A stretch of DNA of 64,000 nucleotides from Escherichia coli (lineage in GTDB: Bacteria > Pseudomonadota > Gammaproteobacteria > Enterobacterales > Enterobacteriaceae). Of this stretch, positions 1-22,912 are shown piece by piece. How positions within the stretch are numbered: the stretch's first letter is position 1; every line of letters begins with the position of its first letter. Location of the stretch: the NCBI RefSeq assembly GCF_045037415.1, contig NZ_CP173438.1, one strand, 5' to 3'. The notes beneath the pieces are model-generated. The model was not told where the DNA came from, ran no database searches, and saw only the letters and a list, made by a program, of their open reading frames with translations. Position numbers and translations under genes: made by a program.

Positions 1-633
1 CTGCGCGCTGCATTGCGGGATTTGTCTGGTGGTTCTAAGGGGCAACTGGAAGCATTGTGTGAGCACCCACCGGCAGACAAAAACGCATACCCACGCAAAC
101 ATATTCACCGTGTGCAGCTGGAGGACCGGACCGTTGATGCTCTGGTTACGCCAGTTTACGCTCTGGAAAGTTTCAGCAGACGTCGCCCCGCGCCGCCGAT
201 GAGTGATTTTGAATTTGCTGATTCATCCTGGCGGCGTTCTGTGAACTCGCTGGATGCAAGTCAGCAAGCGTGGTTGCGTTATTGCTACGGTGGTAACCTG
301 GCATTCAAACACCAAACAGCTATTTGTGAGGCTGTCTGGAGTCGCTATAAAGGAAACATCCCCGCGTCAACTCAGAGAAAAGTAGTTAAGCGCCTGCTTT
401 CGTTGGTGTGGTTGTCCGTGCAGGCGGTCGCAGCAGCAAATAAACGCGAGGATTTTAAGGAGATGGCCGGATCTACCCTAGCAGGAATGCTGTCGGTTTC
501 TCGTTCCACCTGGTGCGAAACATACTCCCTGCACTGGGTAGGAATGAAAGAGGCGGTGAGAGCACTTGATGAAGTGGCACTTCTTGCAACTTTGCATCAT
601 TATCAGAACCATTTAGACGACGTTTGCGTATAA
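1..633 (+). CDS. hypothetical phage protein, 5' end outside window (frame open from position 1); sits where lambdoid phages encode the Q antiterminator but I cannot support that by sequence
   Basis: ORF track 13..633 (TTG at 13) with the same frame open to window start; immediately upstream of putative late promoter and lysis genes. Confidence 0.4.
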   Translation: MRAALRDLSGGSKGQLEALCEHPPADKNAYPRKHIHRVQLEDRTVDALVTPVYALESFSRRRPAPPMSDFEFADSSWRRSVNSLDASQQAWLRYCYGGNLAFKHQTAICEAVWSRYKGNIPASTQRKVVKRLLSLVWLSVQAVAAANKREDFKEMAGSTLAGMLSVSRSTWCETYSLHWVGMKEAVRALDEVALLATLHHYQNHLDDVCV

Positions 634-664
634 TGCTTGCAAAAACGAACAAAATAGGCCATAT

Positions 665-693
665 TTGACGCTAATTTGGTATGTTGCCAAATT
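665..693 (+). promoter_or_regulatory. putative late promoter resembling lambda pR' (-35 TTGACG, 17-nt spacer, -10 CAAATT)
   Basis: TTGACG at 665-670 and CAAATT at 688-693; lambda pR' has TTGACT/TAAATT as I recall. Confidence 0.3.
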
Positions 694-701
694 TCTAAGA
701 A

Positions 702-728
702 CCTCGCCACGGCGGGGTTTTGTCGTTT
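702..728 (+). terminator. putative tR'-like intrinsic terminator (short GC hairpin CCTCG..CGGGG followed by TTTTGTCGTTT)
   Basis: Hairpin plus T-rich tract read directly; located between the putative late promoter and the first lysis gene. Confidence 0.3.
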
Positions 729-745
729 CTGAATCAGGAAAAATC

Positions 746-1129
746 ATGTCTGAACCTCTAACCGCTGGCGTTGCTGCTGGCTCGGCGGGGGTGACGTTTG
801 CTGCGTTATTTCCTGAGGCAACACCTGCAGTGATGATCTGTGCGCTGGCAGGCGCAGCTCTCTATGTGTTGTCGTCCGGGCAGCATCGATTCTGGAAGCA
901 GGTTATTTTCGCACTCATTTCGTTTGTTGGCGGTGTGTATTGCGCTGAGACAGCGTCAGCCATCATTACCGGTATTCTGAACGCGGTGCTGAGTCACCTG
1001 AACCCTCCCGTAACAGTAAAAGTCTCTCCCGCCATTGGTGCACTGGTTGCATCAGTAATCAGCGTTACATCACTGTTGCGGATCATGTCACAAGCTCGTT
1101 TATGGAAATCAGATAAGGGGATGAAATAA
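746..1129 (+). CDS. putative holin / lysis membrane protein (127 aa, hydrophobic segments)
   Basis: ATG at 746 preceded by AGGAAA; ORF track frame 665..1129; hydrophobic TM-like stretches; first gene of lysis cassette. Confidence 0.4.
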   Translation: MSEPLTAGVAAGSAGVTFAALFPEATPAVMICALAGAALYVLSSGQHRFWKQVIFALISFVGGVYCAETASAIITGILNAVLSHLNPPVTVKVSPAIGALVASVISVTSLLRIMSQARLWKSDKGMK

Positions 1130-1401
1130 TGACCCTGCACTCTGTCCTCATCAATGCCAATGCAATTATTTGTCTGATGTTGGCACTACGGTTGATGTTT
1201 TTTCAAAAAACAGGCCGCTATCGTTTTTTCATCTCACTAACTGCTTACCTCGCGATTCTGTCTGCTGCGTGGATAGCCCTACGAATTTTTTACGGGAAAT
1301 ATACGCAGGTTGATCCCGCAGAGTTCTTTCTCAACCTCACCATCTGTATTGCTGTCTGGCGGGCACGAGGGAATATTTCAAAAATAACAGGAGACAGGTA
1401 A
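1129..1401 (+). CDS. putative holin-like small membrane protein (90 aa)
   Basis: ORF track; 2-3 hydrophobic helices; start overlaps stop of previous gene (ATGA). Confidence 0.4.
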   Translation: MTLHSVLINANAIICLMLALRLMFFQKTGRYRFFISLTAYLAILSAAWIALRIFYGKYTQVDPAEFFLNLTICIAVWRARGNISKITGDR

Positions 1402-1880
1402 TGACGGATCCTAAATGGCTAATCGAGGCTCGAAAAAACCTCGGCATTCGGGAAATGAAAGGGAAGCAACATGCTGCAGAAATTGTGCAGTACTGGAAAG
1501 ATATCAAACGCGGCGGCATTAAGGATGACGAAACACCGTGGTGCGCTGCTTTCACCGGGGCAATGCTGGAACGTGCGGGTATTCGCTCAACGCGTTTTGA
1601 GTCTGCGAATTCTTATCTCGATTGGGGTAATGAACTGAAGGAACCCGCCTATGGATGCATTGCTATTCTGTCTCGGTCTGGCGGTGGTCACGTCGGCTTT
1701 GTTGTCGGGAAAAATGCCGCCGGGGATTTAATGATTTTGGGGGGCAACCAGGCAGATGAAGTAAATATCAAAGCTTTTCCTCGTTCCCGCGTAACAGGCT
1801 ACCGCTGGCCAGCAGGTCAAACGGATGTTCCACAATCACTTCCATTGGTGAATGCTGAGAAATCTATCTCAGAAGCGTAG
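1401..1880 (+). CDS. putative endolysin (cysteine-peptidase/CHAP-like type found in place of lysozyme in some enterobacterial prophages)
   Basis: 159-aa ORF coupled to the two membrane proteins; sequence pattern recalled from TIGR02594-type prophage lysis proteins; position in cassette. Confidence 0.5.
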   Translation: MTDPKWLIEARKNLGIREMKGKQHAAEIVQYWKDIKRGGIKDDETPWCAAFTGAMLERAGIRSTRFESANSYLDWGNELKEPAYGCIAILSRSGGGHVGFVVGKNAAGDLMILGGNQADEVNIKAFPRSRVTGYRWPAGQTDVPQSLPLVNAEKSISEA

Positions 1881-20789: not shown

Positions 20790-21002
20790 ATGATTACATA
20801 CACTACACGGGACGGTGACCGTCTCGATCAGATCTGCCTTGCGGTCTACGGGAGAGCGTCAAAAACGACAGAGACTGTTTTATATCAGGTTTCGAATTAC
20901 GGCGTAACGGATATGTGTGCCGTGTTTCGTGCTGGAGAAAAAATTGTTTTACCAGATATCGAACCAGAGCCGGTTAAAAAAGAAACGCAATTATGGGATT
21001 GA
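20790..21002 (+). CDS. tail protein X (LysM-like small tail protein)
   Basis: About 70 aa with RDGD.LD.IC...YG pattern like P2 gpX; T-U-X-D order as in P2-type tail clusters. Confidence 0.6.
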   Translation: MITYTTRDGDRLDQICLAVYGRASKTTETVLYQVSNYGVTDMCAVFRAGEKIVLPDIEPEPVKKETQLWD

Positions 21003-21005
21003 TGA

Positions 21006-22050
21006 ATGAGTGATTACGTAAATACTGGCGTGGAGGCGTGGAAACCTAATTTTTATATATCTGCTGATAATAAAAACATCACGGATAAAATAAGAAAAGG
21101 TTTGATCAATATCACGCTGACAGATTACGGCGGCTCCAGTAAACAGACAGACGAACTCCGCGTAGCAATAGTTTCTGAAACTCTGAAAATTCCGGCCCGC
21201 GGAGTAAAAATCAGTATTGGGCTCGGTTTCGGTAATCAGATAATTGATAAAGGGATATACATCGTTGACGGTGCTAGCAGTGGCGGTGAACCCCGGGTAG
21301 TTGATTTCACAGCAAAAGCGGCTCCGATGAACGCAGCAAAAGGATCTCCGACAGTTCAGAGCAAAAAGACTCGTTCCTGGAGCGACGTCACTGTCAGCGA
21401 TATCGTTGCGACAATAGCGAGCGATAATGGGCTAAAACCACGCGTATCAAAGCGGTTTGCAGACAATGTTATCACGCAACTCGATCAGGTCGGCGAGTCA
21501 GATATGCACCTGATGTCGCGGCTCGCAACGAGATTCGATGCGGTGAGTAAACCCGCGGGCGGGTACTGGATATTCCTGCCGCGCGGCGCGGGCGAATCTG
21601 TTAGCGGTGCTCCGCTCCAGCACTACACGCTAACTCGTCGTGATAACTCCAGCTGGGGCTATTCGAGAAATGGACAAAGTGGCGATAGTGGTAGCGGTGG
21701 CGAAAATCCGGAACCGACGTATCTGATTAAATATCACGACACAGCAACTGGGCAGATCAAAGAATTGCGGACAAGGTAGTGGCGGCGATCCTGTCATTGA
21801 ATGGCCGGCAGTTGAGCCGTCGCTCGACGCAGCGAAAGAAGCTGCACCAGGGCTCAAGGGCGGTGCAGCTAAAAAAGAGTTCTCTATGACGTACACGACG
21901 CCAGCGACGCTCGATTTAGTGTCGCTGACAGCAGAATGCAAAGTCACAACTCAAGGTTTCGGGACCGAGGAGGACCGGGACTGGACTATCAACACACTGA
22001 GTCTGACGCTCGCTGAAAACGGTTTTTCGGTTCGGCTGTCTCTGGAGTAA
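21006..22050 (+). pseudogene. tail protein D (P2 gpD-like) interrupted by +1 frameshift near 21770-21780; N part 21006..21779, C part in +1 frame to 22050
   Basis: 257-aa N part ends RTR-stop; adjacent +1 frame encodes GSGGDPVIEW... 90-aa C part typical of gpD. Confidence 0.7.
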
Positions 22051-22216
22051 ATGGGCTCGGCGAGCCGGTGGCGGTATGAATTTAGTATTAACAGATGTCG
22101 ACTGCAAACGGCACCTGCGATATTTTTAGGCGTAAGCCGGAGAACGAAGAGTCTCTGGTGCTGAACGTTGTTATCGTTAGATGCTGACATATTTTTAATA
22201 TTGGGAGTTTTCAAAC

Positions 22217-22636
22217 ATGGTCGTTAAAAATGGTCTTGCCTGTGGGATTATGCTTGCTCTTGTCGGTTGTGCTACAAAACCTGTCTCAAATGAACAAGCC
22301 ACTCCTGTTCCTGAAAAACAAATTATCAGTACCGCGTTACTCGAAAAACGAGACGGTACGGGAGAGGTGATCATCAAGCGTGACTCGGGTTTCTTTGGAA
22401 GCGCGTGTTTTTCCCGTGTTTATGTTGATGGTAAAGAGGTGGCAGATTTAGGTACAGCTCAGAAAGTCGTTGTATACCCAACGATTGGTGATCATGTCTT
22501 CAGCGCGTGGCCAAAAGGAGTATGTGGTGGTGGCATGAGCGAACAAGCGGGCAAGGTGACAACAGATCGTACTTTGATGTATCGCATAGGGTATGGATCA
22601 AACGGTGAATATGGAATTCACCCAACCGCGTTTTAA
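22217..22636 (+). CDS. prophage-encoded lipoprotein of unknown function (139 aa, lipobox LVGC), moron adjacent to att site
   Basis: ORF track; signal peptide plus lipobox; own terminator; between tail module and attR. Confidence 0.6.
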   Translation: MVVKNGLACGIMLALVGCATKPVSNEQATPVPEKQIISTALLEKRDGTGEVIIKRDSGFFGSACFSRVYVDGKEVADLGTAQKVVVYPTIGDHVFSAWPKGVCGGGMSEQAGKVTTDRTLMYRIGYGSNGEYGIHPTAF

Positions 22637-22644
22637 TTTGTGTT

Positions 22645-22676
22645 GGGGTATGTGAGTTTTTCTCATACCCCTTTAC
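22645..22676 (+). terminator. intrinsic terminator after lipoprotein gene
   Basis: GGGGTATGTGAG-TTTTT-CTCATACCCC hairpin followed by TTT. Confidence 0.45.
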
Positions 22677-22856
22677 CTCGCTTTGCTCCTGACAGTTTGG
22701 TCACATAAAGGCGCAGAACATCACCATTTTTGCCAAAAACCTTCAGAAGACGATGAGTAAGACGCGTCGTAACTATATGATTATTTGATATTCATACACA
22801 CCATTATGTCCGGATAATTTGCCATAATTATTTGAATTTATTGCACAAAGCGACCA

Positions 22857-22912
22857 ATTTAAAATCCCTCGGCGTTCGCGCTGTGCGGGTTCAAGTCCCG
22901 CTCCGGGTACCA
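22857..22912 (+). tRNA. leuZ: 3' fragment (anticodon loop to CCA) of tRNA-Leu(UAA) leuZ; phage att core copy, not a complete tRNA
   Basis: ATTTAAAATCCCTCGGCGTTCGCGCTGTGCGGGTTCAAGTCCCGCTCCGGGTACCA matches leuZ 3' part by recall; no 5' half upstream. Confidence 0.85.

Follow-up and report, generated by a model that had tools for sequence, protein, structure and literature searches.

The window analyzed here is a 64,000-nucleotide stretch of the Escherichia coli contig NZ_CP173438.1. Its first 23 kb are densely packed with open reading frames (ORFs), nearly all of them on the plus strand, which encode phage lysis, packaging, head, neck, and tail proteins. We assign a probability of about 0.88 to the reading that positions 1-22981 are the late half of a temperate lambdoid myovirus prophage of ~42.6 kb, integrated at the 3' end of leuZ in an E. 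coli chromosome of the ST131 type. The complete account, in which an old and widespread head-tail cassette is present here as a copy defective in the tail gene D, with two further indels, in E and in a Z-like gene, that are probably artifacts, carries the same confidence. A sequence-only reading of the region had described a mosaic prophage that joins a lambda-type head module to a P2-type contractile tail module; its observation is confirmed, and its interpretation is partly supported.

The last 56 nt of leuZ recur at 22857-22912, close to yecA, which starts at 23108, and the integration in leuZ proposed earlier is thus sustained. These 56 nt are the first part of attR (22857-22981, plus strand), an exact 125-bp direct repeat of attL that continues with 69 nt from downstream of leuZ, including a terminator hairpin. 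Because the repeat runs 69 nt past the tRNA, the right end of the element lies at 22981 and not at 22912, as had first been proposed. The left end, expected upstream of the window together with an intact leuZ and an integrase gene, was found with both in NZ_OZ369319, a 100%-identical genome, where pgsA, glyW, cysT, and intact leuZ lie upstream of the region equivalent to the window, and leuZ and the tyrosine integrase gene are ~19.7 kb away from it. After the integrase gene, the left half carries an exonuclease/Gp157 recombination block, divergent HTH repressor genes, a replicative helicase gene, and the gene for a Q-type late antiterminator that runs into the window (1-633, plus strand, with its first ~38 nt to the left of the window; phrog_304, E 7e-70; 'bacteriophage antitermination protein Q' in RefSeq). 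Together with the cI/cro-like, replication, and int genes annotated upstream by RefSeq, Q upholds the earlier claim of lambdoid regulation. The annotation of the left half contains no protelomerase, and the element is integrated via the tyrosine integrase and the 125-bp att repeat. ARAGORN found no complete tRNA in the window, and no Rfam family reached its gathering score over 1-23500.

The head genes run in the order Nu1-A-W-B-C-D-E-FI-FII, all on the plus strand, and their assignment to the lambda order is borne out by BLASTP identities of 32-64% and by the families phrog_57 and phrog_82. The packaging genes encode a Nu1-type small terminase (2756-3322; phrog_57; 45% identical to that of the Vibrio phage Valp1) and a gpA-type large terminase (3309-5171; phrog_15; 43% to lambda A and 60% to Valp1). 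They are followed by BLASTP homologs of the lambda gpW adaptor (5171-5404; 35%), the gpB portal (5401-6975; 64%), the gpC protease of the S49 type (6975-8282; 56%), whose C-terminus matches Nu3-type scaffold families, and the gpD decoration protein (8282-8611; 40%); the PHROG families over this 5171-8611 stretch are phrog_75, 21, 53, 8940/8399, and 49. The gpE-type major capsid gene is split into two ORFs (8670-9125 and 9133-9705), whose products correspond to lambda E residues 4-144 and 154-341 with 56-58% identity. The FI packaging chaperone (9740-10159; phrog_92; 32% to lambda FI) and the FII head-closure protein (10156-10536; phrog_82) complete the series. Nu1 and FII were placed through their PHROG families because they are too diverged from lambda for BLASTP; both families also contain the respective lambda protein. 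In Esc3 and H105, RefSeq reduces Nu1 to its last 101 codons (3017-3322) under the name 'hypothetical protein'; at its full length of 188 aa (amino acids) the ORF matches phrog_57 end to end, and it is annotated whole in strain Z247.

The sequence-only reading had placed the head-tail joint directly after FII. Two plus-strand genes intervene, a member of the lambda gpZ family and a homolog of a pyocin collar. The gpZ-family gene, which would encode a tail-completion or Neck1 protein of 226 aa when intact, is split here (10568-10948 and 10945-11247), and its halves match positions 2-109 and 105-199 of phrog_27. Lambda gpZ itself matches phrog_27 at 3e-69, so the lambda order extends one gene past FII. 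The second gene encodes a 178-aa tail collar or terminator protein (11244-11780; phrog_1072) homologous to the R2-pyocin collar PA0615: a profile built from the window ORF and four homologs matches PDB 6u5f, 'Collar PA0615', over nearly its full length with an E value of 3.9e-11. Pfam gave nothing for either neck protein, NCBIfam nothing for the 178-aa ORF, and PDB nothing for the Z-like protein, whether searched by single sequence or by Z-like family profile. Lambda U (phrog_37), P2 R (phrog_65), and P2 S (phrog_26) have no counterpart here, and phrog_27 and phrog_1072 stand at the R and S places.

The contractile tail module follows on the plus strand in the order V, W, J, I, H, a fiber chaperone, sheath, tube, E, T, U, X, D. 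The gpV spike (11746-12663) is 35% identical to P2 V and was the only protein that NCBIfam recognized (TIGR01644, phage_P2_V); its PDB matches are 3qr8, which is P2 gpV (3.6e-16), and 4s37, 'Phage baseplate protein' (1.2e-12). The gpW/gp25 sheath initiator (12666-13007) is 37% identical to P2 W and matches PA0617 in PDB at 1e-20; the corresponding values are 41% to P2 J and 4e-58 to PA0618 (Tri1) for gpJ (13004-13924), and 34% to P2 I and 2e-17 to PA0619 (Tri2) for gpI (13927-14553). The tail fiber H (14546-15730) matches phrog_5075 and many other fiber families by its N-terminus only, and it is P2 H-like just in its N-terminal ~140 aa (32% over residues 28-139). It is followed by a gene for a putative fiber assembly chaperone (15730-16119; phrog_1795), which is 44% identical over 55 aa to the 'tail fiber assembly protein' of phage yong2 and lies outside the P2 G family phrog_136. 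The 500-aa sheath (16116-17618; 36% to P2 FI; PA0622, 1e-47), the tube (17636-18148; 31% to P2 FII; PA0623, 5e-13), and a gpE-like chaperone with a PHROG tail-family match (18161-18442) belong to phrog_23, 55, and 166, respectively. After the gpE-like gene an open -1 frame (~18403-18573) overlaps the start of T, as E' does in P2. The 546-aa tape-measure protein T (18551-20191) is assigned by position and by 34-35% identity to its counterparts in yong2, Chris1, and Valp1; it belongs to phrog_3654 and not to the P2 T family phrog_28. The last three tail genes encode gpU, or 'ripcord' (20194-20616; 35% to P2 U; PA0626, 8.5e-13), gpX, or 'glue' (20790-21002; 40% to P2 X; PDB 2ltf, 'Tail protein X', 1.2e-7, and the glue protein PA0627, 3.8e-4), and the baseplate hub gpD, which is split (21006-21779, with a C-terminal frame to 22050; 30% to P2 D; PDB 6u5h_C from pyocin R2, 7e-21).

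The P2 assignment of the tail therefore stands as to homology, with the BLASTP counterparts of P2 proteins given above at 30-41% identity, and does not stand as to the entire order and content: the succession U-X-D is that of the R2 pyocin, and T and the G-position gene are not of P2 families. The solved R2-pyocin components (PA0616-PA0628) are the best PDB matches, and their locus-tag order equals the gene order of the window. A siphovirus-type tail and a P2-type head were both looked for and neither was found: lambda's tail genes U, V, G/T, H, M, L, K, I, and J, and the P2 head genes Q, P, O, N, M, and L, have no BLASTP match in the window. Some individual proteins depart from their models in length. 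The gpV protein has 305 aa, against 211 aa in P2, with a beta-helix-like repetitive stretch and a C-terminal HTH motif in an end (12570-12663) that reads ...YNGHTHICPDG...; it recalls the HxH iron-binding apex of the P2 gpV spike. The sheath exceeds P2 FI (396 aa) and the pyocin sheath (386 aa), and P2 FI aligns to residues 3-43 and 158-495, which leaves an insert of ~115 aa that is common to Valp1, yong2, and Chris1. A repeat scan detected no invertible fiber segment and no long inverted repeat.

The copy in the window differs from a fully open relative by a handful of bases. In strain Z247 the same prophage occupies the same site and all of its structural ORFs are open, and over the prophage and yecA (to position 24000) the two sequences differ by five substitutions and three single-base indels. 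Farther out, the sole additional difference up to 42058 lies at 27974, between ftnB and araF, where the window has one unit fewer of a short TA repeat than Z247. The first of the indels, an extra A at 21773, reduces D to a 257-aa ORF followed by an out-of-frame C-terminus; the intact gene encodes 347 aa in Z247. The D frameshift is a real lesion, frequent across the lineage and located in an essential tail gene, because residues 15-217 and 303-373 of P2 D match in two different frames, because the gene differs by 1 nt from the intact Z247 allele, and because the +A allele is present in 363 of 432 carrier genomes, including H105, from many projects and platforms (~69 are intact). With its hub gene frameshifted, the copy is predicted to be tail-defective, and any copy with the extra A in D would be unable to build tails.

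The other two indels are of a different kind. An extra A at 9117 splits the capsid gene E, which encodes an intact 344-aa protein in H105 and Z247, and a G lost at 10933 splits the Z-like gene, which is likewise intact (226 aa) in both strains; RefSeq marks E as 'frameshifted' and gives the Z-like gene as split. The E allele occurs in 18 of 430 genomes, six of them from projects outside the 'Esc' series of E. coli chromosomes, and the Z-like allele in 7 of 419. Over 1-23500 these are the only differences between the window and H105, apart from an IS1 insertion in the latter. Both lie inside GAGACC, so that two of the eight GAGACC sites in 41 kb are hit, with a chance of about (48/41070)^2 that both extra indels would fall in this motif. 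GAGACC/GGTCTC is an Eco31I-type motif that is fully m6A-methylated in ST131, with m5C methylation of the opposite strand predicted (PMC4659465). In the Esc series, whose genomes are nearly identical, Esc28, 16, 22, 7, 18, 2, 13, and 14 carry the E indel without the Z-like one, and Esc31, 29, and 8 the Z-like indel without the E one, so that the two alleles occur independently, with partly overlapping membership. This patchy, non-nested distribution fits stochastic consensus errors and does not fit inheritance. The indels at 9117 and 10933 are thus probably assembly or consensus errors at Eco31I-methylated sites.

The sequence-only reading had included neither the gpZ-family gene nor the frameshifts in E, the Z-like gene, and D, and this copy is not intact: D is frameshifted, and E and the Z-like gene are split in the window as given, so that its essential virion ORFs are not all open. 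The IS1 element of H105 (NZ_CP021454; locus L003, 12916-13613) lies in gpV with a 9-bp target duplication. It was considered as a lineage feature and rejected, being present in H105 alone (1 of 445 carriers). In other ST131 genomes IS1 sits at different places within the prophage; strain 23556, for instance, has it in the D region.

The element is a known, already deposited, lineage-typical prophage of ST131, with an architecture seen in isolated phages. Positions 1-23500 are 100% identical to Esc-series chromosomes, and among 5,426 complete E. coli genomes the stretch was recovered, with a coverage of at least 80%, in 441, mostly of ST131 and many of them labelled O25b:H4-ST131, including EC958, H105, and JJ1887. 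In a phage collection, close matches were obtained only to four records with names of the form vB_EcoM-###R#, and GenBank holds the same sequence as "phage vB_EcoM-705R4". The longest vB_EcoM record, ON470624, includes the host gene yecA and is therefore a predicted prophage region rather than an isolate. The reference strain EC958 reportedly has seven catalogued prophages (Phi1-Phi7), and the present element could not be matched to a particular one of these. In a TraDIS screen, EC958_2149 ('phage DNA packaging protein') and EC958_2136 ('phage related tail fiber protein') were among the hits with enhanced motility (PMC5425062). By gene spacing and position, ~12 kb from flhDC, these two genes may belong to this prophage, which we regard as a weaker lead. 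Spacers matching the prophage have also been reported: 28 CRISPR spacers of urological E. coli match ON470624 (PMC12736100), which fits past or present activity. It is a tentative idea, to which we give somewhat less than even odds, that the intact-D copies (~69 of 432, Z247 among them) represent an active, still unisolated temperate coliphage with a lambda-type head and an R2-pyocin-type tail, probably of a new genus, in which case the extra A in D would be a fixed lesion marking most of ST131.

To place the head-tail combination among its relatives, IMG/VR was scanned with the Z-like family; 191 relatives were confirmed and 80 were kept, with flanks that extend ~10 kb beyond the Z-like gene. 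A lambda E-type capsid stands beside this tail in at least 25 of these 80 loci. Fourteen of the 80 belong to the same coliphage family, with 89-100% identity, and at least 12 more, from diverged lineages, show the same pairing; the rest are mostly of the yong2 type. Together with Valp1, these loci contradict the earlier view that the architecture is less common. One locus, IMGVR_UViG_2529293142_000021 (L027), has V, J, I, H, U, and X proteins 85-92% identical to those of the window and other tail proteins at 64-80%, with a different head: its terminase and portal represent the distant type that accompanies a ClpP-capsid head (23-26%), FII is 39% identical, and the Z-like and collar proteins are 63-65% identical. 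By this pattern, in which identity falls across FII, the Z-like gene, and the collar gene, L027 is a natural head swap on the same tail, and it indicates that heads have been exchanged around this joint. Mosaicism is finer than a division into head and tail, however, with Nu1 and A nearer to Valp1 (45% and 60%) than to lambda, and B, C, and E nearer to lambda. To judge from these relatives, the Nu1-to-D module is an old, widespread, exchangeable cassette, and its lambda-head version is an established and recurrent one that was not made in this strain. The mosaic interpretation accordingly holds for the union of a lambda-type head with a P2-related contractile tail and fails as a local event, as Valp1 is collinear from Nu1 to D.

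Some observations favor a recent chimera formed within E. coli from a lambda-like siphovirus prophage and a P2-like prophage. The head genes have a GC content of 54.6%, which drops to 43-48% over the neck and tail; the nearest relatives of B, C, and E are lambda-family coliphages, at 56-64%, and L027 demonstrates that heads can be swapped on this tail. A P2-like donor is nevertheless hard to reconcile with tail proteins just 30-41% identical to those of P2 and with the absence of the P2 R, S, T, and G families. The conservation in Valp1 of the Nu1-to-D order, including the Z-like and collar genes, the greater similarity of Nu1 and A to Valp1 than to lambda, and the occurrence of the same pairing in several divergent IMG/VR lineages likewise argue against it, and a recent local chimera seems very unlikely to us. 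Even less credible is a lambdoid myovirus of the SfV/phiP27/ST64B type, with an HK97-type head and a Mu-type tail, which would share with the element the general idea of lambdoid control over a contractile tail. The comparison with SfV-like genomes had been suggested by the sequence-only reading; tblastn of all 31 proteins against SfV gave no match at E <1e-3, and the SfV gene order differs, with the sheath first and Mu N/P hub genes, so that this possibility is rejected for SfV and its probability is close to nil overall.

The part-for-part match of the tail to the R2 pyocin, down to the collar PA0615, could also be read as the mark of a domesticated tailocin (R-type bacteriocin) locus. Such a locus would not be expected to retain a complete head module (genes for terminase, portal, protease, capsid, decoration protein, and connectors) that is intact in relatives, nor a lambdoid early region, an integrase, and att repeats, and selection for a tailocin would be expected to preserve the essential hub gene D, the opposite of its broken state in most carriers. 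We consider this explanation extremely improbable. A different question is whether the frameshifts in E, the Z-like gene, and D are all genuine, which would make the element a multiply decayed cryptic prophage. All three indels are present in the sequence and in the RefSeq record, and the E allele has been recovered in six assemblies from other projects. The position of both extra indels in a methylated motif, at the chance given above, and the independence of the E and Z-like alleles among near-identical Esc genomes, a misfit with inheritance, make this unlikely, and we retain the interpretation of a temperate lambdoid myovirus prophage with one real lesion, in D, and two probable consensus errors.

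Several points weigh against this interpretation. The artifact reading of the E and Z-like indels is deduced from the indel pattern, and the changes at 9117 and 10933 could be real mutations. The element is known here from sequence alone, its virions and tail morphology being predicted from homology and its induction hypothetical, and the 'phage' entries in GenBank are prophage regions by prediction, with yecA included. T and the fiber chaperone are assigned solely by position and by homology to uncharacterized proteins. At the E/E' site no canonical X XXY YYZ slippery heptamer is found, only A-AAG. Lambda cosN, allowing up to 3 mismatches, was not found in the 2403-2755 interval upstream of Nu1, a search that a divergent cos would escape.

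Between Q and the packaging genes lies a plus-strand lysis cassette (746-2082), identified by phrog_198, phrog_217, and phrog_1259, by RefSeq names, and by translation. It comprises a holin gene (746-1129), a second holin gene (1129-1401), and a gene for a TIGR02594-type endolysin (1401-1880), directly followed by an ORF for a 64-aa lipoprotein with the lipobox LAGC (1888-2082). The 64-aa ORF has no PHROG match and no i-spanin partner was seen for it; it may encode a spanin-type lysis lipoprotein. The sequence-only reading had also counted two morons. The first candidate, an 86-aa ORF on the minus strand (2142-2402; 38% GC; phrog_5191 over its full length), lies between the lysis cassette and Nu1, a place comparable to that of bor in lambda. 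It gave a weak HTH hint in Pfam and no Pfam or PDB assignment; it has no homolog in Valp1, yong2, or Chris1, and it is kept at 85-100% identity in the IMG/VR loci of the close coliphage family (L013-L025). The second candidate, on the plus strand between D and attR (22217-22636), encodes a 139-aa lipoprotein with the lipobox LVGC (phrog_890, 'lipoprotein', E 2.5e-52). Nothing was found for it in Pfam, PDB, NCBIfam, or PADLOC, and it is absent from Valp1, yong2, Chris1, and the fetched IMG/VR stretches, the D-attR region lying mostly outside those stretches. Neither ORF matched a PADLOC defense family, and promoter and terminator scans around both were no better than shuffled sequence. Moron status is plausible for both from their position, orientation, composition, and absence in more distant relatives; Pfam, PDB, and PADLOC assigned no function to either. 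In the left half of the element, between the replication genes and Q (locus L001, 4813-10150), lies what is likely further cargo, with several genes on the opposite strand: an ORF6N-domain protein, an LprI-family lysozyme-inhibitor-like protein, and an ImmA/IrrE metallopeptidase with a neighbor gene.

For an intact copy, homology suggests how these genes would act. Antitermination by Q would yield one rightward late transcript. The Nu1/A terminase would fill a lambda-type capsid made of the B portal, the C protease with its Nu3 scaffold, the E shell, and the D decoration protein, and the portal would be closed by W and FII. The gpZ-family tail-completion protein and the PA0615-type collar would cap the contractile tail. 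The V spike, W initiator, J/I wedges, sheath, tube, U ripcord, X glue, and D hub would correspond one-to-one to the R2 pyocin/P2 machine, and the 546-aa tape measure predicts a tail of ~80-90 nm.

As a routine prophage of a pandemic lineage, the element matters little for biology at large. The frameshift in the hub gene D explains an expected lack of infectious particles from this prophage in most ST131 strains. The two GAGACC indels give warning that errors at methylation motifs in long-read assemblies can create false pseudogenes. With the neck resolved, a gpZ-family protein and a pyocin-collar homolog are seen to link the two module types, and they mark the site of head swaps such as that of L027.

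Among named phages, Valp1 (Vb_VaM_Valp1, OR500391) parallels the entire module: its genes follow the order of the window all the way from Nu1 to the hub gene D, and 18 of the proteins are 28-60% identical. The shared series consists of Nu1, A, W, portal, C-type protease, D-like, E-type capsid, FI-like, FII, Z-like Neck1, and collar-like proteins, followed by tail V to D. It is an isolated and imaged myovirus with a 60-nm head, a 90-nm contractile tail, and a protelomerase (PMC11054321). Valp1 also has Q-like, cII-like, and Cro/CI-like regulators. Unlike the window element, with its integrase and leuZ site, it is a linear-plasmid prophage (protelomerase, ParAB) of a marine Vibrio, and it alone carries an additional PAAR protein as well as a further ORF that separates V from W; from portal to capsid, the genes of the window element are closer to lambda than to Valp1. 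The Hapunavirus phages (VP882, PhiHAP-1, VHML) have a non-P2 head with a lambda-like terminase and portal and with the connectors Hc1 and Neck1, followed by the P2 V and F operons, and VP882 has the same order of V, W, J, I, fibers, sheath, tube, E, T, U, X, and D at 20-33% identity. In the HAP1-like viruses, P2 homology was described in 2009 as restricted to the V and F tail operons (PMC2771037). Hapunavirus differs in that protease and capsid are fused, with no separate C/D/E, and in being telomere phages.

Lambda shares the order Nu1, A, W, B, C(Nu3), D, E, FI, FII, Z and Q-dependent late control, with 32-64% identity for A, W, B, C, D, E, and FI, and differs in its siphovirus tail genes and its lysis genes; its cosN sequence was not found in the interval searched upstream of Nu1. 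P2 shares V, W, J, I, H (N-terminus), FI, FII, U, X, and D at 30-41%, the V-operon-then-F-operon order, and an open -1 frame after the E-like chaperone. It differs in its head genes, in R and S, in T and G of other families, and in the position of X, which lies upstream of the lysis genes and not between U and D. No homolog of Ogr, for late control of the P2 type, was seen in the window, where late control is of the Q type. The lambdoid temperate phages yong2 (Hafnia) and Chris1 (Citrobacter) come nearest of all database phages in sheath sequence (46%) and have the Z-like protein, the collar, and all tail parts in common with the window element at 32-54%, whereas their heads contain a ClpP-capsid fusion with distant terminase and portal proteins (21-27%), and their tail order is V, sheath, tube, E, T, U, X, D, W, J, I, H.

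The R2 pyocin (PA0615-PA0628; PDB 6u5b, 6u5f, 6u5h, 6u5k, 3j9q) has the same order as the window tail, including the collar before V and X between U and D, and, among solved structures, its parts are the best matches to the collar, W, J, I, sheath, tube, U, and D of the window; V is nearest to P2 gpV, and the best match of X is 2ltf. It is a bacteriocin with no head, terminase, connector, or gpZ-like gene, and its sheath does not share the ~115-aa insert of the window sheath. Judged on these similarities, the tail of the prophage is nearer to the R2 pyocin, Valp1, and yong2 than to P2, and the R2 pyocin serves as the structural model of how this tail would fire.

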